Shown here: positions 2,410 to 64,000 of the stretch, piece by piece
Position numbering within the stretch: position 1 is the stretch's first letter
Layout of the letters: every line of letters starts with the position of its first letter
Source: an uncultured Acidobacteriota bacterium
GTDB taxonomy: Bacteria; Acidobacteriota; Blastocatellia; RBC074
DNA length: 64,000 bases
Direction of reading: 5' to 3'
Assembly: GCA_963796275.1 (NCBI GenBank)
Contig: CAWCKY010000001.1
Location: 608,001-672,000, forward strand
Program-made: the position numbers and the translations under genes
Notes under the pieces: model-generated
What the model was told of the DNA's origin: nothing
The model's input: the letters and a program-made list of their open reading frames with translations, nothing else
Database searches by the model: none

Positions 2410-3990
2410 TCACATCTGGACATTTTCAAAATCGCTCTTCCTAACATGGAGGGCTTCGGATGCCGATACCCCTTCCGTCCTCGGCTGAGGGAATGTTTGC
2501 CTCATCAAATCCGCCGGCGAGTCTGTACGTGTACAGACAATCAGAATTTGAAAGGCGAACAGCCCGGGCCACCGCCGCGCAAGCATTGTCAGCGCGCGAT
2601 CAACCAGCCTTATCAAACGCGATCGTTCACCCGCCAGATCGGCAAGGGGAGGGCCGAAACCAATCTCACTGTCGATCCGGAAACCTGCATTCTTAAGCAA
2701 TCTCCGAAAAGAATTGACCGTGAACAGCCGCCGGTGGGCTATGTCGAGAATCCCACGCCCGTAATTAAACCATCCCAGCAGTAGCACAAGGCGGAGAGGG
2801 AAGAAGGCCACGTTGCCCGTGCTCGCATAAAGCTTCCCTCCGCTTTTCAAGTGCTTGAAGATTTCCTCCGCGCATTTCTCCGGCGATCTCAAGTGTTCGA
2901 GTACGTCGAGAGCGATCGCCGTGTCATATTGTCCGGCTTCGAATTGTCGCACCCAGGGGCGATCGAGATCGACGGCGAACTGCCTCATTTCGGGTTCATC
3001 CTGATCAAGCCATTGGTCTATGTGAGTTACTTCGACGCCGCGTTCGGCCATGCCACGGCTGACAGCATCACCGTTCGCGCTGCCCAGATCGATCAGGCTC
3101 GAGCCGGGTACAAGAGGCAGGTTTTTTATAAAATATCTGAGTGTAGTCGGAGCATGGGTGCTCCTGGTTCGAGCGATTGACTCGCTTTCGATATCGAATT
3201 TTGGGTCGTAGAATATATCGAATTGCATGAGCCGGTATTTGGATACCGTTTTGACGCATTGCCAGGCATACCGCAACCCGTTCACGTGGCAGATCTCATC
3301 GCCGTAGTAGGTCGGGATCGGTACTTCGGTAATGCGAAAACCGGCGGCGTGTAGCTGTACGATTATATCGGCATCGAAATCAAACCCCAGGCTATTGCTG
3401 GTGAAAGGAACCTGCCTGAGAACCGAGGTGCGATATGAGCGATAGCCGCTGTGCATTTCGGTCATCCGGGCGCCCAAAATCAAATTTTGTGTCCTCGTTA
3501 AAATGCGGTTGCCGATCCATTTGTAAAGCGGCATTCCGCCTTTGATTGCATCTTTGGGGTTGATGAAGCGGCTGCCAAAAACCGCATCCGCCCCTTCGGC
3601 ATAGGGCGCCAGGATGTGGGGTAGAGCTTCGGGCGCATACTGGCCATCGCCGTGCAGGAGTACGACGATATCGATCCCCTGTTCGATGGCATAGAGGTAG
3701 CCCAATCGTTGATTACCGCCGTAACCTTGATTATAGGGAGTGCGAAAGATATTCAGGGGAGCGTATCGACTCGGCCAGTCGACTTGGCCGGCGACTGCGA
3801 CGGTATTATCGCTCGAATGGTCATCGATGATGAATATCTCGGCGAGTCGCTCGGCAATCCAATCGGGGATCCGTTTCAGCACCTTCTCGATATGCCGCTC
3901 AGCATTATAGGCCACGATTAAGATGGCGACCCGATTCTCCTCCAGGGTGCGCCGCGCGAGCTCTTCGATATGATTCGAGTGGCTATTCAA
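2410..3990 (-). CDS. GT2 (polyprenol-phosphate glycosyltransferase-like) fused to a class I SAM methyltransferase
   Basis: N-terminal IVAYNAE, IIDDHSSD, HGDGQY and HSGYRSY (DPM1-like). C-terminal LIDLGSANG and DVLEHL methyltransferase motifs. Confidence 0.85.
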   Translation of the reverse strand: MNSHSNHIEELARRTLEENRVAILIVAYNAERHIEKVLKRIPDWIAERLAEIFIIDDHSSDNTVAVAGQVDWPSRYAPLNIFRTPYNQGYGGNQRLGYLYAIEQGIDIVVLLHGDGQYAPEALPHILAPYAEGADAVFGSRFINPKDAIKGGMPLYKWIGNRILTRTQNLILGARMTEMHSGYRSYRTSVLRQVPFTSNSLGFDFDADIIVQLHAAGFRITEVPIPTYYGDEICHVNGLRYAWQCVKTVSKYRLMQFDIFYDPKFDIESESIARTRSTHAPTTLRYFIKNLPLVPGSSLIDLGSANGDAVSRGMAERGVEVTHIDQWLDQDEPEMRQFAVDLDRPWVRQFEAGQYDTAIALDVLEHLRSPEKCAEEIFKHLKSGGKLYASTGNVAFFPLRLVLLLGWFNYGRGILDIAHRRLFTVNSFRRLLKNAGFRIDSEIGFGPPLADLAGERSRLIRLVDRALTMLARRWPGLFAFQILIVCTRTDSPADLMRQTFPQPRTEGVSASEALHVRKSDFENVQM

Positions 3991-9371: not shown

Positions 9372-9413
9372 GACAAAAATGTTATCTTTCACGCTCCTGG
9401 AGACATTTTTGTC
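9372..9413. promoter_or_regulatory. Pair of ACA-W4-TGT palindromic boxes, 30 bp apart, upstream of the NifA-like activator
   Basis: GACAAAAATGTT (9372-9383) and GACATTTTTGTC (9402-9413). Confidence 0.6.
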
Positions 9414-9516
9414 CAAGACGTTAAGCGGCGAAAGATATCGATAGCAGTGATGTTCGGGTGCCAGTATTGGCAGACATAACCGATGCTGAATAAAAGCACG
9501 AGGAGACAAAGCGGGC

Positions 9517-9530
9517 GAACAATATTGTTC
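9517..9530. promoter_or_regulatory. Third ACA-W4-TGT box (perfect 14-bp palindrome), possible autoregulatory operator
   Basis: GAACAATATTGTTC, about 45 bp before the activator start codon. Confidence 0.55.
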
Positions 9531-9574: not shown

Positions 9575-11107
9575 ATGATGATGGATGAATCGGCACAGAT
9601 AAGGAAGTTGACGGCGCTGCTCGACGTGAGCCAGGCGCTCGGTTCCACCTTAAATTTAAGCGAGGCTCTTGAAAACATTCTGGAAATTCTCGACCGAGAA
9701 CTCGGGATGAAGCGCGGCGCTATCGTAATGCTGGAAGCGAAAGGGGAGCTGAAGATCCAGTATGCTCATGGGATGAGCGAGGGTGAACGGCAACGCGGTC
9801 GCTATCGTCTCGACGAAGGCATAACGGGCAAGGTCGTATCATCAGGCAAACCTGTGGTTGTTCCACAGGTGAGCAGGGAGCCGCTGTTCCTCAACCGGAC
9901 GCGCAAACGCGATCCCAAACAGGAAGAATCCTTCATCTGTGTTCCGATCAAAAACCACCGCAAGACGATCGGCGCGCTTTCGATCATTTATCCGTTCAAA
10001 CAAAACAGGAGCTTCGATGATGCGGTTAAACTCCTCACGATCATAGCTTCGATGATTTCGCAGAGCCTCCGAATGGCGCAGATGGTTGAGCAGGAGAAAG
10101 CACAGCTGGTTGATGAGAATGCGCTGCTTAAGCGCGAACTGCAACAGAAATATGATTTCCGCAACATCATCGGTACGAGCAAAGAGATGCGCGAGATCTA
10201 TGATCAGATCGCGCAGGTCGCGCATACCAATACTACCGTGTTGATTCGGGGAGAGTCGGGCACGGGCAAAGAGCTGGTCGCGCACGCGATCCACTACAAC
10301 AGCCCGCGTTCAGCCAAACCTTTCGTTAAGGTTAATTGCGCGGCGCTCCCCGAATCATTGATAGAGTCGGAGCTCTTCGGTCACGAGAAAGGAGCTTTCA
10401 CCGGCGCCGTTGCGCGCAAAAGAGGGCGTTTCGAGCTGGCTGAAAGCGGAACGATGTTTCTGGACGAAATCGGTGATCTTTCGCCGGCATTACAAGTCAA
10501 ATTGCTGCGCGTTCTGCAGGAGCGCGAATTCGAGCGGGTCGGAGGTACCGAGACGATCCGCGTCAATGTCAGGATGATAACGGCGACGAATGTAGACCTG
10601 GAACAGGGGGTGCAGGATGGGCGTTTCCGCTCCGACCTGTATTACCGACTGAATGTCTTTTCGATATATTTACCGACATTGCGCGAGAGAAAGACCGACA
10701 TCTTATTGCTCGCCGATCATTTCCTCGAAAAATACGCTCGTCAAAACGGTAAACGTATCAAGCGTATTTCGACGCCCGCCATCGATATGCTGATGAGCTA
10801 TCACTGGCCAGGCAATGTGCGTGAACTCGAGAATGTCATAGAACGGGCGGCGCTCGTCTGCGAAGGAAACGTCATTCACGGGTATCATCTGCCCCCCACC
10901 CTCCAGACCGCTGAAGGCTCTGGAACAGTTACAAAGATGAGCCTGGATCAGGCGGTCAGCGCATTTGAAAAGGACCTGATTCAGGATGCTTTGAAAACAG
11001 CGCGCGGCAACCGTGCGCGCGCTGCCAGAATGCTCGATACGACCGAACGCATTCTCGGTTATAAGGTCAAGAAATACGAGATTGATTCCAGACGCTTCAA
11101 AGGATGA
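9575..11107 (+). CDS. NifA-like sigma54-dependent activator (GAF-AAA+-Fis HTH)
   Basis: N-terminal GAF domain, GESGTGKE Walker [33 protein letters not shown], and C-terminal [13 protein letters not shown]. Confidence 0.92.
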
Positions 11108-11222
11108 AGTCAGCTCATTCTGCGTACCAACTCTGAACATTCACTATGAGCTCGCATAAATGCTGAAGTATTAATCGGGACCGCCTTTGTTTCATAAATA
11201 AATTCCCGGCACTGATGAAAAG

Positions 11223-11266
11223 CGACAATAATGTTGGGAAAATCGAGCGAGGCTACATTTTTGATG
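11223..11266. promoter_or_regulatory. Putative upstream activator sequence: two ACA-W4-TG boxes 30 bp apart
   Basis: cGACAATAATGTTg (11224-11235) and cTACATTTTTGATg (11254-11265), about 95-135 bp upstream of the -24 element. Confidence 0.6.
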
Positions 11267-11357
11267 TGGGCTAAAAAATCGTTATCGCGCCTGGGCTTGT
11301 CTATTTTCCGCTGTTTTTGCTGACATTTAATGGACCAAACCGGGGAAACGCTCGGAC

Positions 11358-11373
11358 TGGCAAGCCAGTTGCT
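11358..11373 (+). promoter_or_regulatory. Sigma54 (-24/-12) promoter for the small ORF-glnA unit
   Basis: TGGCAA-GCCAG-TTGCT matches TGGCAC-N5-TTGCW with exact GG-N10-GC spacing. Confidence 0.85.
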
Positions 11374-11444
11374 ATAAAACATGTTTACGTATCGTTCAGG
11401 AAGAAGATTTTAGAGGGAGGGGGCACTACTATAAGTGTGAATAC

Positions 11445-11669
11445 ATGAGTGGAAATTACAGACAAAAAAACAACAGTTATGGACAGCTCATGGAATTTTT
11501 GTTGAGCGAACGCCATCGTTATGAATCCGAAGAGGAATTCAGAGCATACGCTCTTGGGGAGGTTCGACGTTTCATCAGCGAGTTGCGACGGCTTGATATA
11601 GAGCTGACGATGCGGCCGAATTTTCTTGAGAAATCACCATTGGATTTCAACGCACCTGATAAGCCATAA
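11445..11669 (+). CDS. Small uncharacterised protein (74 aa), paralog 1, upstream of glnA
   Basis: Ungapped 46-aa core shares 30 identities with ORF 18673-18933. Lies between the sigma54 promoter and glnA. Confidence 0.8.
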   Translation: MSGNYRQKNNSYGQLMEFLLSERHRYESEEEFRAYALGEVRRFISELRRLDIELTMRPNFLEKSPLDFNAPDKP

Positions 11670-11788
11670 AAGCTTACGGTGACGAAGAAGCCCTGCTGGA
11701 TTTCTTCAGGCTTTTCCGAAGAGTTTCTTTCCAATCCCAATAATTTAATTTTGGCCTGGGAGAGTCCCAGCGCCCAAGGAGGCAATGA

Positions 11789-13213
11789 ATGACCCCAAAA
11801 GATGTAATAAAGCTAGCCAAAGAGAAGGGCATACAAATTGTAGACCTACGATTTATTGATATGCCCGGGACATGGCAGCACTTCTCGATTTCGGTTGGAG
11901 AATTGTCTGAAAACCTCTTCTCGGAGGGGATTGGTTTTGACGGTTCATCAATTCGAGGATTCCAGGCGATCAATGAATCGGATATGCTGCTCTTTCCGGA
12001 TCCGACAACCGCCACCATCGATCCCTTCACCGAGCATCCGACGTTGGTACTGATCTGCGATGTGAAAGACCCGATTACCGGCGCGAATTACACGCGCGAT
12101 CCGCGATTTGTAGCCAAGAAAGCCGAGGAGTATGTCAAGAAGACAGGTCTGGCCGATACGGTATACATTGGGCCAGAGCTGGAATTCTTCATCCTCGATA
12201 ATGTCCGCTTCGACCAGAGTTACAACTACGGTTTTTATTATCTCGACTCAGAAGCAGCGGCCTGGAATTCGGGAAGAGAAGGAACGCCCGAGAGGCCGAA
12301 CCTGGGCAATCGTCCGCGCTATAAGCAGGGTTATTTCCCCGTGCCGCCCGATGACCATATGCAGGACATACGCTCTGCGATGCTGCTGGCGCTCGAAAGC
12401 GTCGGCGTGAGAATCGAAGTACACCACCACGAGGTGGCGACCGGCGGTCAGACCGAAATCGACATGCGGTTCGACACATTAACCCGGATGGCTGACAAGG
12501 TGCTCTGGTACAAGTACTGCACCAAGAACGTTGCGAAGAGATACGGTAAGACGGTGACATTCATGCCCAAACCGCTCTTCCAGGATAACGGTTCCGGCAT
12601 GCATACGCACCAGTCGCTGTGGAAGGGTGAGAAGAATATCTTTTACGAGAAGGGGGGGTATGCCGATCTCTCGCAAACCTGTCTTTACTACATCGGCGGC
12701 ATTCTCAAGCACGCGCCGGCTCTGTGCGCATTGATCGCGCCGACCACCAACTCCTATCGCCGTCTGGTGCCCGGCTACGAAGCACCGATCAACCTGGCCT
12801 ACAGCCAACGAAACCGATCGGCGGCTGTGCGCATTCCGACCTACTCGAAAGCCGAGAGAGCCAAACGCATCGAGTTTCGTACTCCGGACCCGACCTGCAA
12901 TCCGTATCTCTCCTTCGCCGCTTGCGTAATGGCGGGGCTGGATGGGATTGCCAACAAAATCGATCCGGGCGATCCGATGGACAAGGACCTCTATGAATTG
13001 CCGCCGGAAGAGGCCGCGGAGATCAAGCAGCTTCCGGGATCGCTCGATGAGGTGCTCAATGCATTGGAGACTGATCATGCCTTCCTGCTGAAGGGCGATG
13101 TCTTCACTAAAGATTTGATCGAGACCTGGATCGAGTACAAACGGAAGAACGAAGTGGATCCGATCCGTCTGCGTCCACATCCCTGGGAATTCGCGCTCTA
13201 TTTCAACGTCTGA
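11789..13213 (+). CDS. glnA: Glutamine synthetase type I
   Basis: [33 protein letters not shown] and RIEFR motifs. Adenylylation Tyr in [17 protein letters not shown]. Confidence 0.98.
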
Positions 13214-13217
13214 AGCT

Positions 13218-13294
13218 GCACAAACTGGAAGCAAGAACGGCAAAATGAAGTAGAAAAGTTTGCTTCCTTTTGCCCTTTTGCTTCCAGTTTTTGC
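13218..13294. terminator. Long imperfect inverted repeat between convergent glnA and GlnE-removase genes, probable bidirectional terminator
   Basis: AAACTGGAAGCAA (13222-13234) pairs with TTGCTTCCAGTTT (13278-13290). Confidence 0.6.
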
Positions 13295-13296
13295 GC

Positions 13297-14895
13297 TTAT
13301 TTCGTCTCTTTCGTTTCCTCCTCGCTTCTCCTCTTCAGGCGCGAAGATTCTGGCGCCCCGATGATAATTTCGAATATTCCATTCACATGGTTGGTATGAA
13401 GTTGATAGTCGCGTAGGAATTGCTCGCTTGCGCTCAATTGATCGTCATCGCAATAACCGAGCATACGGGAGAGAGCATTCAAGGGGCCCGCTTTTACCGG
13501 TATCGAATGCGTCTGCGCATCATCGACCATCTGCAGCTTATTCTCCACATCCCGCAGGAAAATGTAGGCCGCAGTCAGCCTGATCATCTCGTCAGCCGAG
13601 ATCAGCGCTTGAGCGCAGAGCGCATCGAGGGCTTTCAGCGTGCTGCGTCCGCAAATCTCCTGGTAGCTGCTCCCGAATGTTAGTTGAAGCGCCTGTACGA
13701 TGAGTTCGATCTCGCGGATTCCCCCGAATCCCAATTTGACGTTTCGGTCCCGCTCGCGGCTGGCAGTCATCTTTCTGTCGATCTTTTTCTTCATAGCGCG
13801 GACCTCGTTGAGGGGTTCGAGGCCGAAAGGGCGTTCATAAACAAAAGGAGCGACCATGGCCAGAAATTGCCGGCCGAGCCGGGCGTCGCCAGCCACCGGA
13901 TATGCCTTGAGCAAAGCTAATCTCTCCCACGTCTCACCCCGCGCATAATAATATCGCCGGAATCCATCGAGCGAATATGCGATGTTTCCCATTCGGCCAT
14001 CGGGCCGTAACCTCAAATCGACGCGATACAAATAGCCTTCGTTTGTGATGTCGCTTAAAGCCAGGGTGACTCTTTGCGAGAGCTGGCGATAGTACTCGGT
14101 GCTCGAGATGGGTGCGGTCTGATTCGAGTCATCATCGTCAGCTGCGTGTAGATAGATCAGGTCGACATCGGAGCTGAAGTTGAGCTCACCTCCGCCGAGT
14201 TTCCCCATTCCCAGGATGGTGAACCCCCCCAAACTTCTTCTGGAGATTCCGGATTCTCGAAACAGCGCGCCTTCACAAATCCGCAGGGCGGCCGAGATCA
14301 GCGCTTCAGCGAGTAGCGAGAGAGCAGACAGCGTTTCTTCAACCGGGCAAAGACGCATGAGATCGCGCACTCCGATGTGCAGCATTTCCCTACGTTTGAA
14401 AGCGCGCAGGAAATCCAATTGCTTCTTTTCTGACGCGATACTCTGCAGTCCGCGCAAGACATCGCGGGCGATCTCCCGCTTTTTACGTTTCTGGTAGAGC
14501 GTCTGAGGATCAGTCAGCCAGTAGAGATAGACCGGATCCCTGATGAGAATTTCGGCCATATGCTGGCTGCCTCCGAAAGTCTTGGCGAGAATTTCCAGGC
14601 TGCGCGGGGATTCATTAAGGTAGGAAAACAAGCGCGTTTTGTTGACGGCGGAGCGCGCGAATCTTTCGAAATGATTGAGCGCCTGGTCCGGGTCGGCCGA
14701 TTGCGACGCGCACAGGAGCAAATCTTCCAGGATATTGGCCAGTAGCTGGCGCGCCGTGGGATCATCCGCCATCGCCTGCAGATTGGCGTCAGCTTTAGTT
14801 GGCTCTTTAAATCCGTAAGGACCCAGCAAAGCTTCCGCCTGCTGCGGATCGAGGCGTGGCGCCAGCAGTAGATCCTTTAAGTTCTTGGGCGACAT
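13297..14895 (-). CDS. glnE: Stand-alone GlnE N-terminal half (adenylyl-removase-type nucleotidyltransferase)
   Basis: One NT domain: GMGKLGGGELNFSSDVDLI, YRVDLRLRPDG, WERLALLKA and NVKLGFGGIREIE. Start taken at MSPKN (ATG 14895). Confidence 0.85.
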   Translation of the reverse strand: MSPKNLKDLLLAPRLDPQQAEALLGPYGFKEPTKADANLQAMADDPTARQLLANILEDLLLCASQSADPDQALNHFERFARSAVNKTRLFSYLNESPRSLEILAKTFGGSQHMAEILIRDPVYLYWLTDPQTLYQKRKKREIARDVLRGLQSIASEKKQLDFLRAFKRREMLHIGVRDLMRLCPVEETLSALSLLAEALISAALRICEGALFRESGISRRSLGGFTILGMGKLGGGELNFSSDVDLIYLHAADDDDSNQTAPISSTEYYRQLSQRVTLALSDITNEGYLYRVDLRLRPDGRMGNIAYSLDGFRRYYYARGETWERLALLKAYPVAGDARLGRQFLAMVAPFVYERPFGLEPLNEVRAMKKKIDRKMTASRERDRNVKLGFGGIREIELIVQALQLTFGSSYQEICGRSTLKALDALCAQALISADEMIRLTAAYIFLRDVENKLQMVDDAQTHSIPVKAGPLNALSRMLGYCDDDQLSASEQFLRDYQLHTNHVNGIFEIIIGAPESSRLKRRSEEETKETK

Positions 14896-15062
14896 ACTGT
14901 CTGATAAGATAATGAAGTTTGGAAGACGAAACAAATAATAATTATATGGAGGAATGAATCACGACAAAAATCACAAATGTTGCCTGTAACCGCAAATATT
15001 ATCTTTGGCATCGGTTTTTTGTCCTGTTGTGAGACTTCTTCCTCGAATACTATAGAACACGA

Positions 15063-17312
15063 ATGGTGAACGCTGAAATCAAGAGAGTGATCGAAACATT
15101 CTGTCCGGAAATCGACAAAGATTTTGTCGGGGAATTCTTTGCTCGCATGGATGAAGATTATTTTGCCACTTTCTCTCCGGAAGAGATCGCCACCCATATA
15201 CGTATGTCGCGCGGGCTCGATCCGGAGCATCCGGTGCGATGCCTGATTACGCCGCGCGGTGACGGCGAATTCGATATCATCATCGTCGGTTTCGACTACC
15301 TTTCCGAGTTTTCCATCTTCTGCGGCTTAATGTCGGCGTTCGGTCTCGCGATTCAATCCGGCAATAGCTATTCGTTTGCCAGGAATACGTCCGATGCCAC
15401 AAGCGCGCGAACGGCCCACCGATCTCCTAGAAGGAAGCGGCCATCGTCGAGCCGGATCGTAGATGTCTTCACCGTCAGCCTGGACCAGGATGAGGTATTC
15501 GATGAATCCACACAATCCCGCTTCGCGGAGCAACTGCAAGCGCTCGTCCGGCAGCTCGCTACAGGATCGTCCGACCAGGTTAGGGATCGTCTCAATCGCC
15601 TTCTGACCGATCGTCTTGAGAAGATGGATGGGCAATTGAGCGGTCTGCTCTCTCCCATCGATGTCCAATTCGATAACCTGGCTTCGCCGGACTGGACCCT
15701 GATGAACGTGCGCTCCGAGGATGCCTACGCCTTCCTCTATGCTTTCTCGAATGCGCTCGCGATGCGCGGAATTTACATACACAAAGTCAGGATCGAAAGC
15801 GTCCGGAACGAAGTGAGAGATCAGTTTTTCATCGCCGACAGATGGGGACGCAAAATCGAAAGTGAACGAGAGCAGGAGCAACTGCGCACGGCGGTAGTGC
15901 TGATCGAGCAATTCACACGGTTCTTGCCGTCAGCGCCGGACCCGGCTCGGGCGATGCGCCACTTCGATCAGTTTCTGGATAAGATCGCGGAGGAGCAGAT
16001 TTCCGACGAGTCCGTAGCCTTTTTCACCGGCGATGAGGGAATGAACCTGCTGGCGCATCTGCTGGGCAGCAGCGATTTCCTCTGGGACGAGTTCCTGCGC
16101 TTCAAAGAAATACAACCGATCCTGCCGATTCTGAGAGACTTCTCTCGCATTGAACTGGATCCCGGTAAACAATCGCTGTTCTATCACCTCGACGCACAGC
16201 TTGCCCGTGCCGCCACTTTTGAGGAGAAGAAGAAGGGCGTCAACCAATTCAAGGACCGCCAGGTCTTCCTGATCGATATAAAGCACCTACTGGATCCGCA
16301 GACAACCCTGGTGGATTTCTCTCAAGCGCTGACCCACCTGGCCGAGGTGATTCTGCATAAAGCTGCTGAACTTTGCCTCTCGCAACTGGTCGAAGAGTAC
16401 GGAGAGCCCGTGTTGATAAACGGAACCAAGTGCAGGTTTACGATCTGCGGGCTGGGCAAGTTCGGCGGGTGCGAAATGGGATATGCATCCGATCTTGAGA
16501 CGTTGTTTGTTTACGAAGGACCGGGGCAGACGCGCGGAGATAAGGCGATAGATAATGGGATTTTCTTTGAGCTATTGGTGCAAAAGATCGCAGAGTTCAT
16601 CGAAGCCCGTGAGAAAGGGGTCTTTCACATCGATCTCAGGCTCAGACCGCACGGAAAAGCCGGCGCGCTGGCGAGCCCGTACGAACAGTTGGCGGCTTAT
16701 TACAGTTCAACAGGCGAAGCTGCCCCTTTTGAGAGGCAGTCGCTCATCAAGCTGCGGTGGGTCGCCGGAGATGAAGCTCTCGGACGTAGAGTGGAAGCCC
16801 ATCGGGACAGTTACAGCTATAGTGGGGAGACATGGGATTGGGAGTACGCCCTCCATCTGCGCGGCAGGCAAGAGCGTGAACTGGTCAGGGCCGGTGAGGT
16901 GAATGTGAAATATAGTCCCGGTGGAATCATCGATATAGAGTACACCGCTCAGTATCTGCAAATCATCTTTGGGAAAGATCAGGGCCTCAGGACGGCCAAC
17001 ACGATGGAGGCGTTGGACGAGCTCAACCGTTTGCAAATCATCGCTCGAAGCGATCACGGTGAATTACAGACCGCCTATATTTTCTTGCGCCGGCTAATCG
17101 ATGCGCTCAGGCTGGTGCGCGGCGATGCCAGCGACCTCGTGCTGCCGCACGAGTCTTCAGAGGAATATAAATCGCTCGCTCGAAGAATGGGCTACCAGGA
17201 GCGAGACCGAAGAAAGAGCGCCGAGCGATTGGCCGCGGATATCAGACAGTTAATGAAAAAAGTCCGGTCACATTATCTGAAATGCATACAAATTAAGGCG
17301 CAGCCGGGTTAG
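15063..17312 (+). CDS. glnE: GlnE C-terminal half (adenylyltransferase-type) fused to N-terminal GlnD-like tandem ACT domains
   Basis: GLGKFGGCEMGYASDLE, IDLRLRPHG, FERQSLIK and VKYSPGGIIDIEY. The N-terminus has EDYFATFSPEEIATH and VQFDNLASPDWTLMNVRSED...DQFFIADRWGRKI, resembling GlnD ACT repeats. Confidence 0.85.
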   Translation: MVNAEIKRVIETFCPEIDKDFVGEFFARMDEDYFATFSPEEIATHIRMSRGLDPEHPVRCLITPRGDGEFDIIIVGFDYLSEFSIFCGLMSAFGLAIQSGNSYSFARNTSDATSARTAHRSPRRKRPSSSRIVDVFTVSLDQDEVFDESTQSRFAEQLQALVRQLATGSSDQVRDRLNRLLTDRLEKMDGQLSGLLSPIDVQFDNLASPDWTLMNVRSEDAYAFLYAFSNALAMRGIYIHKVRIESVRNEVRDQFFIADRWGRKIESEREQEQLRTAVVLIEQFTRFLPSAPDPARAMRHFDQFLDKIAEEQISDESVAFFTGDEGMNLLAHLLGSSDFLWDEFLRFKEIQPILPILRDFSRIELDPGKQSLFYHLDAQLARAATFEEKKKGVNQFKDRQVFLIDIKHLLDPQTTLVDFSQALTHLAEVILHKAAELCLSQLVEEYGEPVLINGTKCRFTICGLGKFGGCEMGYASDLETLFVYEGPGQTRGDKAIDNGIFFELLVQKIAEFIEAREKGVFHIDLRLRPHGKAGALASPYEQLAAYYSSTGEAAPFERQSLIKLRWVAGDEALGRRVEAHRDSYSYSGETWDWEYALHLRGRQERELVRAGEVNVKYSPGGIIDIEYTAQYLQIIFGKDQGLRTANTMEALDELNRLQIIARSDHGELQTAYIFLRRLIDALRLVRGDASDLVLPHESSEEYKSLARRMGYQERDRRKSAERLAADIRQLMKKVRSHYLKCIQIKAQPG

Positions 17313-17359
17313 ATGTTCGGTCGCCGGAAATCAATCGAGAACAAATTTTTGTGCCCTTC

Positions 17360-18397
17360 CTACCATTCGCCAGCATCGACCACATCGACCTCCACGGCGT
17401 TCGAACTGTGACCCTCGCAATAGACCTGCACTGTGTTGGAGCCGATATCGAGCCCGGGTGGGACAGCGATATTGATCTGTGCCGAGCCGGCCTGATCGAT
17501 CTCACTGACAAAACAGGGGCGCACACCATAACCTCCGATCACAACCTTCACGTTTGTGCGAGTCGCCGTTTCTGGCATTCTCTTCGCCCAGATCGCGAAA
17601 ATCGCATTTCTGCCGCGGCGCGGGAAGTAATGCTTGAAAGTACATGCATTATTCACATCATCGATAAAGATCGAGGGCGCGGGTTGAGCCGGTAGGTCGG
17701 TGAATTGGCGGTGAGCCTTTAAGGTCGATCGCGTCTTTTCGCGGTGTATCACATCTATCTGCGCGAACCCGGCGGTATCGGCCATATTTACGAGGCACTG
17801 CGTATTTGGCCCCCACCAATTATCGTATTGCCCGCCCAATTCATCGAACGGATAGAACTCCATGACCGGCGACGTTGCATCGAGCATACCATCGATAACG
17901 TATGATTGAATTATCGCTACATCGCGCGTAACTTCACAGACGCGCTGCAGACCCAGCAATGGATGTTGCAGATGGTAGAGCACGCCCAGGAAAATGACGA
18001 TATCGAAAACGCCGAGATTCTCGCGGCTGACTTCATAGACGCTCAGCTCGCGAAATTCAACGCGCGATTTGAGCTCGCTATGCGCCTCGAAGAATTTGGC
18101 GGGGCGGACGCAGTCGACTGCCACCACCTCGGCACCGTGCCGTTCAGCCGTGAACGAATAAAAACCATCCCAACAGCCAATGTCGAGCACACGCTTCCCG
18201 GTAAGGTCATCCGGTAATTTGAAATTGTCATAATGAGATTGAAGTTCATCGAGTTTGCGCGCGCCCGGAGTGATTCGGCCGCCTCCGAGATCGATGCTGT
18301 GCCACCAACCGGTTTTCGCCAGTTCTTCGGTATTTTCTCCCGCTACTTTTTCATGTGCTTCCCGCATCGCGAGATCGTCTTTTAATTGTGTCGCCAT
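17360..18397 (-). CDS. Class I SAM methyltransferase (CmoB/DUF1698-like) with C-terminal IPT/TIGR03437-like tail
   Basis: WWHSIDL, VLDIGCWDG, FLGVLYHL and NWWGPN motifs. Tail is QINIAVPPGL...SSNAVEVDV. Confidence 0.75.
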   Translation of the reverse strand: MATQLKDDLAMREAHEKVAGENTEELAKTGWWHSIDLGGGRITPGARKLDELQSHYDNFKLPDDLTGKRVLDIGCWDGFYSFTAERHGAEVVAVDCVRPAKFFEAHSELKSRVEFRELSVYEVSRENLGVFDIVIFLGVLYHLQHPLLGLQRVCEVTRDVAIIQSYVIDGMLDATSPVMEFYPFDELGGQYDNWWGPNTQCLVNMADTAGFAQIDVIHREKTRSTLKAHRQFTDLPAQPAPSIFIDDVNNACTFKHYFPRRGRNAIFAIWAKRMPETATRTNVKVVIGGYGVRPCFVSEIDQAGSAQINIAVPPGLDIGSNTVQVYCEGHSSNAVEVDVVDAGEW

Positions 18398-18514
18398 AAT
18401 GTTTCTCGTGTGGATGATGTCTGATAAAGAAAGCTAATTTACCTCAACGGTTAAGTCGAATCAATTCCGCAGCGGTGCCGAGTTATTGTAAAAGGCTGGC
18501 GTTTAGATGGCAGA

Positions 18515-18526
18515 TACATTATTGTT
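18515..18526. promoter_or_regulatory. ACA-W4-TGT box upstream of small ORF paralog 2 and ilvD
   Basis: TACATTATTGTT, with half-sites at 18483-18490 and 18543-18550. Confidence 0.45.
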
Positions 18527-18593
18527 GCCGGAGAGAACGGAGTACATAAAAAACTGAAAAGAAGTGATATCAAGACTAGACCGTGCAGGGCAA

Positions 18594-18608
18594 GGGCACT
18601 AACGTCGC
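18594..18608 (+). promoter_or_regulatory. Possible degenerate sigma54 promoter for small ORF 2-ilvD
   Basis: GGGCAC-TAACG-TCGC keeps GG-N10-GC spacing. An alternative, TGGCGT-TTAGA-TGGCA, lies at 18497-18512. Confidence 0.4.
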
Positions 18609-18672
18609 GGAGAGTGATGTCTGCAACTCATTCGACGCTCTCTTAAACCCATGAACATTATTTTAGGAGGAC

Positions 18673-18933
18673 TTGATGCACGACTACGAAAATGAAAAGA
18701 GTGAAACTACTGAACCTAAGGACCAAAGCGAGTTGATGAGCTTATTGCTGAAAGAGCGTTCGAAATTTTCGTCTGAGGAGGAATTTAAGGCGTACGCGGT
18801 AGATGAAGTGCGGCGCTTCATCAATGATCTGCGTTCGATCAATATCGAGCTTACGATGCGGCCAACCTTCAATAAGATTCCGCTCTCGCGGCATAGCGTC
18901 ACCGAAAAATTGAGCTCACATCGAGAAAACTGA
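18673..18933 (+). CDS. Small uncharacterised protein (85-86 aa), paralog 2, upstream of ilvD
   Basis: AGGAGG RBS at 18665-18670. Core SEEEF.AYA..EVRRFI..LR...IELTMRP.F is shared with 11445-11669. Stop lies 9 nt before the ilvD ORF. Confidence 0.85.
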   Translation: MMHDYENEKSETTEPKDQSELMSLLLKERSKFSSEEEFKAYAVDEVRRFINDLRSINIELTMRPTFNKIPLSRHSVTEKLSSHREN

Positions 18934-18942
18934 CTTAAAAAT

Positions 18943-20715
18943 ATGGCTTTTGATCCAGAAGATAATAATAACAACATCACTAACGGATCGGAGCGGGCGC
19001 CGGCGCGTTCTTATATAAAAGAAAAAAGTGATTTAAACATGTCATTCGATCCCAAACATCGCAGTCACATAATCACGAATGGCCGTGATCGGGCGCCGGC
19101 GCGCTCGATGTTCAAGGCCATAGGGTTTACCGATGAAGACCTGGCCAAACCGATTATCGGTGTCGCCCATATGTGGATTGAGACGATGCCCTGCAACTTC
19201 AATCACCGCGATCTGGCAGTAAAGGTCAAGGAGGGCATCCGCGCAGCCGGCGCCACGCCGATGGAGTTCAACACGATTTCGATCAGTGACGCGGTGACGA
19301 TGGGCACTGAAGGTATGAAGGCTTCGCTGGTCAGTCGTGACCTGATAGCCGATTCGATCGAACTTGTCGGGCGCGGTTATATGTTCGATGCCGTGATAGC
19401 GATTGTCGGCTGCGACAAGACGATTCCGGGCGCGGCGATGGGGCTGATCCGTTTGAACGTGCCGGGGCTGATCTTATATTGCGGTTCGATAGCTCCGGGA
19501 AATTTTCGCGGTCGCGACATAACAATTCAGGATGTCTTCGAGGCAGTCGGCGCTAATGCGGCGGGCAAGATCACAGACGCGGATCTTTTTGAGATCGAGA
19601 ACGTCGCTTGTCCCGGAACGGGCGCCTGCGGCGGTCAGTATACTGCCAACACAATGGCGATGGTGATGGAGTTCATCGGCTTGTCTGTCATGGGAACGGG
19701 CAGCGTTTCGGCGACCGACCCGCTCAAAGAGAAGACCGCGATTGAGTCGGGCAAGTTCATTGTCGACCTTCTGCGTCGAGGCGTCAGGCCTAGCGATATA
19801 CTGACTCGCATATCATTCGAGAACGCGATAGCCGGAGTCGCAGCCACCGGCGGTTCGACAAATGCTGTGTTGCATCTGCTCGCTATGGCGCGCGAAGCGG
19901 GGATCGATCTGACGATCGACGATTTCGACGCGATCAGCAAGCGTACGCCGCTCATAGCCGACCTGAAGCCGGGCGGAAAGTACACGGCGATCGATCTGGG
20001 GAAAGCGGGCGGCATCGGGCTCGTAGCGCGGCGCCTGGTCGAAGCCGGTTGTATCGATGGGAATCAGGTCACCGTGAGCGGGCTGACCATCGCACAGGAG
20101 ACCGAACTGGCAGACGAAACGCCCGGCCAGACCGTCGTTTTCTCTGTCGATAAACCTCTCAAACCCAACGGCGGGCTGGTAATCTTGAAAGGCAATCTCG
20201 CGCCGGAAGGCGCCGTCGTCAAAGTTGCCGGCCACGAACGCCCGTATCATCGCGGTCCTGCGCGCATCTTCGAGCGCGAAGAGGATGCGATGGAGGCGGT
20301 GACGGGCAAGCAGATCAAATCCGGAGATGTCGTCGTCATAAGATACGAAGGTCCGAGAGGCGGCCCGGGTATGCGTGAGATGCTCGGTGTAACGGCGGCG
20401 ATAGTGGGCGAGGGGCTGGGCGAAGAAGTAGCTTTGATGACCGACGGGCGTTTCAGCGGCGCCACCCGCGGGTTGATGGTCGGCCACGTAGCCCCTGAAG
20501 CGGCAACCGGCGGGCCAATCGCCGCGCTACGCGAGGGCGATATGATCGTATTCGATATCGAAGCCCGCAAGCTCGAAGTCGAACTCTCTGATGAGGAGAT
20601 CAAGCGAAGGTTGTTAGAATGGAAACCGCCCGCGCCGCGTTATAGGTCAGGAGTTTTTCAAAAGTACGCCGCGCTTGTTTCATCGGCCTCGGAAGGGGCG
20701 ATCACGAGAGGATGA
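18943..20715 (+). CDS. ilvD: Dihydroxy-acid dehydratase, with a duplicated 32-aa N-terminal extension (conventional start 19039)
   Basis: PCNF, GCDKT, ACGGQYTANTM, GGSTNAVLHL, EGPRGGPGMREM and TDGRFSG motifs. Confidence 0.97.
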   Translation: MAFDPEDNNNNITNGSERAPARSYIKEKSDLNMSFDPKHRSHIITNGRDRAPARSMFKAIGFTDEDLAKPIIGVAHMWIETMPCNFNHRDLAVKVKEGIRAAGATPMEFNTISISDAVTMGTEGMKASLVSRDLIADSIELVGRGYMFDAVIAIVGCDKTIPGAAMGLIRLNVPGLILYCGSIAPGNFRGRDITIQDVFEAVGANAAGKITDADLFEIENVACPGTGACGGQYTANTMAMVMEFIGLSVMGTGSVSATDPLKEKTAIESGKFIVDLLRRGVRPSDILTRISFENAIAGVAATGGSTNAVLHLLAMAREAGIDLTIDDFDAISKRTPLIADLKPGGKYTAIDLGKAGGIGLVARRLVEAGCIDGNQVTVSGLTIAQETELADETPGQTVVFSVDKPLKPNGGLVILKGNLAPEGAVVKVAGHERPYHRGPARIFEREEDAMEAVTGKQIKSGDVVVIRYEGPRGGPGMREMLGVTAAIVGEGLGEEVALMTDGRFSGATRGLMVGHVAPEAATGGPIAALREGDMIVFDIEARKLEVELSDEEIKRRLLEWKPPAPRYRSGVFQKYAALVSSASEGAITRG

Positions 20716-63479: not shown

Positions 63480-63664
63480 AATGCGATACGCAACAAACAC
63501 GCGAAAACAGGGATAGAAGCAAACATTTTTGTCATCTTCACCGCTCGGGCGGAGCGAATCCTGAGACGTCGCAGAGGATATTTTACCTGCGTCTCCATAA
63601 GCATTCTCTACGTCCAGACGGTGGTAACCGCAACTATAAAATTGCAGCTAAACTCAAATATAAG

Positions 63665-64000
63665 ATGAGAACGAACAAGCTGATTGCCATCTCACTGATC
63701 TTCGCCCTGCTGATATCATTAACGTCGATATTTCCCGCAGTGCCATCTGTGCTCTCCGCATCGCGCCCGCCTGTCCGCGGAAAGCATGGGATGGTTGCGT
63801 CAGTCAGCGAAATCGCCTCGCAGATAGGAGTTGACATTTTGAAACGCGGCGGCAATGCGGTGGATGCCGCAGTTGCCGTCGGGCTGGCGCTCGCGGTCGT
63901 GTGGCCTTCGGCGGGCAACCTGGGGGGCGGCGGGTTTATGGTAATCCGACTGGCTGATGGCAAAACGACGGCAATCGATTACCGCGAGATGGCGCCTGCC
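63665..64000 (+). CDS. ggt: Gamma-glutamyltransferase (5' part, runs off the window; missing from the ORF track)
   Basis: My translation gives MRTNKLIAISL...HGMVAS..ASQIGVDILKRGGNAVDAAVAVG.ALAVVWPSAGNLGGGGF..IDYREMAP. Confidence 0.93.
   Translation, partial: MRTNKLIAISLIFALLISLTSIFPAVPSVLSASRPPVRGKHGMVASVSEIASQIGVDILKRGGNAVDAAVAVGLALAVVWPSAGNLGGGGFMVIRLADGKTTAIDYREMAPA

Follow-up and report, generated by a model that had tools for sequence, protein, structure and literature searches.

Control of glutamine synthetase (GS) is a textbook example of metabolic regulation that has been detailed for only a few phyla, and each newly studied phylum (cyanobacteria, Firmicutes, methanogens) has revealed a different small protein in GS control. 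PII, IF7/IF17, the tails of GlnR and TnrA, sP26, and GlnK are all small proteins that act on GS in lineages other than the one considered here, the Acidobacteria, which are among the most abundant bacteria in soil. IF7 is a basic protein whose arginines bind GS, and cells express the gif genes when GS has to be shut down. Published accounts describe IF7 and IF17 as the cyanobacterial GS inactivating factors, encoded by gifA and gifB (PMC6316151, PMC6212724). For the glnRA operon of Firmicutes, GS itself is described as the sensor that is bound by the tail of the regulator (PMC9249791), and the sP26 protein of Methanosarcina mazei is reported to interact with GS and to increase GS activity when nitrogen is limiting (bioRxiv 10.1101/2020.05.06.080432).

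Here we describe two paralogous small genes, sp1 and sp2, in a 64-kb window (the whole stretch of DNA that was analysed, 64,000 nucleotides) of a 1.32-Mb contig from an uncultured Acidobacteriota bacterium, where they lie in a nitrogen locus together with a NifA-like activator gene, a type I GS gene, and two genes that each encode one half of GlnE (Table 1). The encoded proteins belong to a new, undescribed family that has no curated counterpart, solved structure, or fold match, and they are best read as a non-homologous variation on the theme of a small protein attached to GS control. An earlier note on this DNA, made from the letters alone, had proposed a new modulator of GS, GlnE, or the activator that possibly stands in for PII, with IlvD among the proteins to be modelled with it. 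Its novel family and its link to nitrogen metabolism have held up, the latter recurring in all six genomes with DNA examined, while the association with IlvD is not conserved.

Table 1. Features of the window discussed in the text, with positions counted from its first nucleotide.
Feature	Position	Strand	Remarks
ACAWTWWTGT, three sites (9373, 9403, 9519)	9373..9528		5′ of the activator gene
Activator gene (GAF, sigma-54 AAA+, HTH_8)	9575..11107	+	NCBIfam NifA score 562.7, cut-off 528.85
ACAWTWWTGT pair, 30 bp apart, second with 1 mismatch	11225..11264		about 100-130 bp 5′ of the sigma-54 promoter; same pair in L004
Sigma-54 promoter, GG-N10-GC, TGGCAAGCCAGTTGCT	11358..11373	+	72 nt 5′ of the sp1 ATG
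sp1	11445..11669	+	ATG ORF, 74 aa; position includes the stop codon
glnA, type I GS	11789..13213	+	
GlnE half	13297..14934	-	matches the N-terminal (adenylyl-removing) part of full-length GlnE
GlnE half	15063..17312	+	matches the C-terminal (adenylyltransferase) part, behind a GlnD-like ACT region
Methyltransferase gene	17360..18397	-	absent from L002 and L004
ACAWTWWTGT	18516..18525		160 nt 5′ of sp2; perfect in the window only, not in L002 or L004
Weak sigma-54-like candidate	18594..18609	+	5′ of sp2; score 17 of 20.5
sp2, paralogue of sp1	18676..18933	+	85 aa from ATG; 86 aa from the in-frame TTG at 18673
ilvD	18943..20715	+	
Gamma-glutamyltranspeptidase gene	63665..64000		cut by the window end
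ACAWTWWTGT, all six window sites	9373-9382, 9403-9412, 9519-9528, 11225-11234, 18516-18525, 63523-63532		

The relationship between the two genes is clear at the protein level. Both ORFs are present as first described, and the ungapped match between their 46-residue cores (11487-11624 in sp1, 18733-18870 in sp2) was reproduced at 30 identities, with 86 of 138 identical positions in the underlying DNA; the best ungapped match obtained from 5000 shuffles of the sp2 protein was 13/46. BLASTP aligns the two proteins over 54 positions, 33 of them identical and 42 positive (E 8e-22). A search of all six stop-to-stop frames of the window with tblastn and the family HMM found no third copy. The start of sp2 is preceded by AGGAGG 6 nt before the ATG. 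For sp1, the public gene call (P0010) gives a protein of 59 aa that begins at 11490, which is Met16 of the ORF used here, and position 11445 is the first in-frame start codon. The motif just before Met16 is YGQLM, which corresponds to a YGELM consensus common to the family and therefore favors the start at 11445, but about 21 nt separate this ATG from the closest Shine-Dalgarno-like run 5′ of it, so the start remains provisional.

To ask whether these genes encode proteins, eight copies from six genomes were collected with the family HMM: the two in the window and those in five related loci (L001-L005). The differences between sp1 and sp2 fall 13/10/29 on codon positions 1/2/3, but the third codon positions of the forward frame coincide with those of one antisense frame, so that periodicity by itself is not decisive and all six frames were scored. 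The forward frame contains a stop in none of the eight copies, the antisense frame that shares its third positions is broken in five, and each of the remaining four frames is broken in six to eight. Mean pN/pS is lowest in the forward frame (0.29, compared with 0.41-2.4 in the other five), and between copies pN is 0.08-0.29 while pS, at 0.6-0.95, is near saturation. The forward frame is thus the sole frame open throughout, with low pN against saturated synonymous sites, and both sp1 and sp2 are real protein-coding genes, as the earlier note had supposed. An antisense ORF that overlaps both window copies and seemed conserved at first sight was rejected on the frame breaks given above. That the site instead represents a conserved RNA leader or a chance ORF is scarcely credible; artefacts are frequent among small ORFs and the ribosome-binding context of sp1 is weak, but against this stand the frame and pN/pS results, the strong ribosome-binding site of sp2, the absence of an Rfam family match at the site, and the recovery of 244 protein clusters. 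Rfam searches at E≤1 over positions 11000-19100 returned sub-threshold miRNA-model matches only, all on a hairpin at 13217-13296.

Database searches placed neither protein in a described family. Up to E 10, sp1 matches nothing in Pfam or NCBIfam and sp2 yields sub-threshold noise only, and 48 family members have no meaningful Pfam match (best E 0.025, scattered across nine unrelated families). No match was returned by PADLOC for the family, by the ESM Atlas for sp1 or for a member of the type ending in LKIGCE, or by tblastn against a plasmid collection; the family profile reaches a best E of 0.34 against all PDB sequences, with none at E≤0.1, and Foldseek against the PDB found no fold match (best E 6.6). 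None of these searches connects the proteins to a known family of unrelated function. Among titles and the starts of abstracts, nothing was found on this family, on GS or nitrogen regulation in Blastocatellia or Acidobacteria, or on PII in the Acidobacteria phylum.

When 1.84 billion representative proteins were searched exhaustively with the profile in HMMER, 46 scored E≤1e-3; 44 of these are 54-149 aa long, and no fusion to a known domain occurs. In general, members of the family have about 55-100 residues. Two repeat proteins matched in several stretches, P0055 (598 aa) and P0067 (244 aa), were judged to be spurious and do not enter alignments A2 and A6; A2 also leaves out P0036 and P0044, which have long unaligned N-termini. 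A word-indexed profile search recovered the 244 clusters, and among the matches listed those with names are all called ‘hypothetical protein’. Organism names are attached to five of the 120 clusters listed out of 244 (four Blastocatellia and one Acidobacteriota), and loci L001-L005 come from Blastocatellia, Acidobacteria, or Acidobacteriota metagenome-assembled genomes. As far as the named sources show, the family is restricted to Acidobacteriota, mainly Blastocatellia.

AlphaFold2 models built on family alignments agree for the two paralogues (mean pLDDT 76 for sp1 and 74 for sp2). A short helix (residues 14-21 in sp1, 19-26 in sp2) and a long helix (29-49 and 34-53) form a core predicted with pLDDT above 90 in both proteins, the conserved IELTMRP stretch is a confidently placed extended segment, the N-terminus and the variable tail are predicted to be disordered, and neither model contains strands. 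The isoelectric points are 5.82 for sp1 and 5.62 for sp2, with a median of 5.88 over 48 members, and this mild acidity argues against DNA binding by either protein. These properties can be set against those of the small regulators that the family resembles in size or setting. PII proteins (GlnB/GlnK) are likewise small signal proteins, acting on GS, GlnE, and nitrogen activators, but sp1 and sp2 (74 and 85 aa) have no Pfam match to P-II, which is about 112 residues long (E 10 for the pair, E 0.1 for the 48 members), and the predicted two helices and extended segment differ from the trimeric β–α–β ferredoxin-like fold with its T-loop. Like IF7 and IF17, sp1 and sp2 are small, lineage-restricted, and linked to GS, and direct protein-protein binding is the mode proposed for them; unlike the basic IF7 they are acidic, and the search for a sequence relation, which covered curated families and PDB chains, gave no match. 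They also lack the MerR-type winged helix DNA-binding domain of GlnR and TnrA in Pfam searches, a further difference from those regulators besides their acidity. sP26 offers the precedent of a small GS-interacting protein, a role for which sp1 and sp2 are only candidates, and is distinguished from them by description (23 residues, archaeal) rather than by sequence.

The gene neighborhood ties the family to nitrogen assimilation, with all eight copies inside the same nitrogen locus in six of six genomes. L004 reproduces the order of the window (activator, sp1, type I GS, both GlnE halves, sp2), and in L002, whose sequence opens partway through the first GlnE half, the second half comes next and then sp2, a pair of FtsX-type permease genes, and ilvD. 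In L001, L003, and L005 the flanks (a DUF481 gene and the activator) are kept and a type III GS replaces the type I cassette, with the small gene directly after the type III GS (GSIII_N, Gln-synt_C, and C-terminal domains). A same-strand GS gene directly adjoins five of the eight copies, type I in the window and L004 and type III in L001, L003, and L005; two further copies, the sp2-type genes of L002 and L004, directly follow the GlnE adenylyltransferase half, and the last, sp2 of the window, is separated from that half by one opposite-strand methyltransferase gene. Depending on the genome, the sp2-type copy follows either the type III GS or GlnE, and so tracks the position in the locus rather than one enzyme. 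The adjacency of sp2 to ilvD in the window is not conserved, the two permease genes lying between them in L002, and IlvD was rejected as a partner. In metagenomes, clusters of the small protein and of GS occur on contigs of equal size (8086, 5451, 9104, and 1858 bases), which is only a hint of more small-protein/GS gene pairs.

Because a single bacterial class is the source of every locus, part of the shared gene order is inheritance, and the six genomes do not count as independent. It is thus conceivable, though rather improbable, that the small genes have a function unrelated to nitrogen and are passengers held in place by inherited synteny within the class. Besides the single lineage, the variable immediate neighbors of sp2 (ilvD, FtsX-type permeases, a terminator) fit such a reading, as does the fact that gene context covers few family members and leaves the LKIGCE majority outside it. 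On the other hand, synonymous sites are saturated between loci, and the locus has been rebuilt, with either type I GS and GlnE or type III GS, and yet the small gene stays in the GS unit behind sigma-54.

That unit is defined by its promoter. The bare GG-N10-GC pattern is not rare (2 matches, 0.96 expected), but a weighted scan, which gives only 0-3 matches per sequence overall, places a near-consensus sigma-54 promoter at the head of the unit of GS and small gene in five of five loci that cover the region: before sp1 in the window and L004, and before the type III GS gene in L001, L003, and L005. In each of these five the activator gene lies immediately 5′ of the promoter. The claim that the sigma-54 promoter preceding glnA has sp1 as its first gene is borne out by conservation of the promoter in L004 and by the 119-nt spacer between sp1 and glnA, which has no terminator-like site and whose RNA fold is not better than that of shuffles (z 0.12). 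A strong terminator comes immediately after the small gene in L001 and L005 and after sp2 in L004. Just 5′ of the ribosome-binding site of glnA, at about 11752-11770, is a hairpin that shares its stem (CTGGG/CCCAG) but not its loop with L004. The long hairpin at 13217-13296 separates the stop codons of glnA and the first GlnE-half gene, which converge on it, and is probably a two-way terminator.

A 10-bp palindrome-like motif, ACAWTWWTGT, provides a possible link between the activator and this unit. The window contains nine matches at six sites where 0.45 are expected, a count reached by none of 100 shuffles, and the related loci contain 13 matches in equivalent places in four of five, usually as pairs 30-31 bp apart. 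Pairs equivalent to the motifs upstream of the activator gene, with that same spacing, occur in L001, L003, L004, and L005. The site at 11225-11234 ends 124 bp before the start of the sigma-54 promoter, and that at 63523-63532 lies 5′ of the gamma-glutamyltranspeptidase gene. Judged from their sequence and placement, these are probable candidate binding sites of the GAF activator, sp1 and glnA would form one activator- and sigma-54-dependent unit, and the sites may mark a small nitrogen regulon. The sigma-54-like site before sp2 is not conserved in L002 or L004 and is therefore uncertain, and the case for sp2 as a target of the activator and sigma-54 is weaker than that for sp1-glnA. In L001, a near-consensus sigma-54 promoter at 3734-3749 also lies 5′ of the activator gene itself, which suggests autoregulation in that locus. 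The activator scores above the NifA cut-off despite the absence of nif genes from the 64-kb window, and its position next to a GS promoter means that an automatic ‘nif-specific’ annotation would mislead.

We hypothesize that sp1 and sp2 are lineage-specific, protein-binding modulators of the GS system, a candidate role to which we give an even chance and whose target is suggested by gene order. Their genes would belong to a nitrogen-assimilation module governed by the NifA-like GAF activator and sigma-54, with sp1 and type I GS sharing one promoter and, in genomes with a type III GS in the locus, the small gene placed after that enzyme and before the terminator. The small protein would then be expressed together with GS under nitrogen limitation, bind another protein of the module, and tune GS output. 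Such co-expression argues for a tuning, stabilizing, or protecting role rather than an IF7-type off-switch, since the gif genes are on when GS is switched off and sp1 is presumably co-transcribed with GS. A small regulatory gene as first cistron of a glnA operon recalls the glnRA arrangement of Firmicutes, with the difference that transcription of sp1-glnA would proceed through sigma-54 and the GAF activator. Counting against the modulator role, 91 of 159 relatives belong to the LKIGCE subfamily and the window pair lies outside it.

Among possible targets, GS itself is placed first because it is the one neighbor common to most copies and because small GS-binding proteins are the rule in the other lineages studied, yet as an assignment from gene order it remains tentative. 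A complex prediction with two GlnA copies (alignment A5) and residues 12-63 of sp1 (A2) scored 0.00 in both runs, below the mark, in a calculation made without controls, and so weighs neither for nor against binding. If the small protein binds GS, GlnE, or the activator, it would represent a new regulatory class, and if it binds none of them, a real protein family absent from the domain databases will still have been identified. In either case the small protein in the GS unit, the adjoining NifA-like activator, the candidate motif, and the split, ACT-bearing GlnE form a testable candidate set.

The activator is placed second, as the most conserved neighbor and because the layout recalls pspF-pspA; gene order makes it an unlikely target, less so than the remaining ones. 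By analogy with PspA and PspF, the small protein may be a feedback partner that attaches to the activator's GAF or AAA+ domain and thereby damps, or else licenses, transcription, an explanation we likewise regard as unlikely. The activator is 79-89% identical across loci (79-85% in L001, L003, and L005) while the GS type is swapped, its gene directly precedes the promoter in all five loci noted above, sp1 heads the activated unit, and a conserved core would fit a conserved partner. As in the PspA-PspF and HrpV-HrpS systems, the first gene of a sigma-54 operon adjoins the activator gene and could feed back on it, a feature that holds for sp1 and its L004 orthologue, the small gene being second in L001, L003, and L005. 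However, the sp2-type copies of L002, L004, and the window follow GlnE far from the activator and lack a conserved sigma-54 promoter, and the sequence and fold searches relate sp1 and sp2 to neither PspA nor any other known anti-activator. They have no PspA/IM30 domain in Pfam, are much smaller, and travel with GS as operon cargo rather than with a stress system.

The split GlnE is an unusual arrangement in its own right. Its halves are encoded by two divergently transcribed genes in the window, a split shared by L002 and L004, and the adenylyltransferase half carries about 280 N-terminal residues that resemble the GlnD ACT region. That the GlnE halves are the target indicated by gene order is improbable, and equally improbable is the more specific proposal that the small protein is an accessory subunit supplying a signal input to the adenylyltransferase or adenylyl-removing half, which puts into concrete terms part of the earlier note's idea of a stand-in for PII. 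The sp2-type genes stand directly after the ACT-adenylyltransferase half in L002 and L004 and one gene away in the window, a terminator follows sp2 in L004, and the GlnE here is unusual in being split and having an ACT region of its own, but in L001, L003, and L005 the small gene sits beside type III GS with no GlnE within the 16-kb loci, and the ACT region is already a sensor that makes an extra factor unneeded.

No PII gene is present in the 64-kb window or in L001-L005, and no AmtB gene in the window; with its GlnD-like ACT region, the GlnE half may sense glutamine without PII. A more far-reaching possibility, which we rate as a long shot, is that PII in Blastocatellia is replaced or accompanied by a small-protein signal transducer that is not homologous to it. 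Synthesized together with GS from the sigma-54 promoter, this protein would use its conserved helical core and its tail to read the state of type I or type III GS, and that state would be passed to the NifA-like activator, to the split, ACT-bearing GlnE, or to both. If true, this would be a third independent solution to feedback control of GS, after PII/GlnE/NtrBC and GlnR/TnrA.

The C-terminal tails vary across the family. In a tally of 159 relatives, from which the two repeat proteins had been dropped, the C-terminus is exactly LKIGCE in 91, an sp1-type end (KKP or similar) occurs in about 20, an sp2-type HSxTxKL motif in about a dozen, and an SPKE end in a few; the tails are conserved within subfamilies, with KKP/DKP, REN, PKE, and GCE among the ends seen, and the window copies carry sp1-type and sp2-type tails rather than LKIGCE. 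The LKIGCE group is the largest subfamily, mostly of 71 aa, with the tail usually following DWN (P0044-P0127 and others). This invariant tail may point to a role independent of GS.

The tails invite one further explanation, that the helical core is a recognition or leader module and the tail (LKIGCE, HSxTxKL, SPKE, or KKP) is the active part, either as a modified peptide or, in loose analogy to Pup and PafA, as a tail that enters or is joined by an enzyme of the GS fold. The action of the neighboring GS enzymes on a glutamate carboxylate would fit this explanation, as would the conservation of tails within subfamilies, the many exact LKIGCE ends, and the predicted disorder. A conserved core with subfamily-specific tails would also suit the form of modified-peptide precursors, a pattern seen in the sequences of the family. 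Even so, the explanation is highly improbable. No radical-SAM, YcaO, lanthipeptide, or similar maturase genes and no PafA/Dop ligase or proteasome genes occur in the window or the five loci, and the neighboring GS genes encode ordinary type I and type III enzymes. Sp1 and sp2 differ from Pup and UBact in having no Pfam Pup domain and no PDB chain at E≤0.1, the tails never end in GGQ or GGE, and LKIGCE is missing from both window copies.

A minor observation concerns the gene downstream of sp2. The true N-terminus of IlvD begins with the ATG at 19039; the 32 codons that precede it in the long ilvD ORF (18943-19038) look like a decayed second copy of this N-terminus, and family models match the ORF only from about residue 38.
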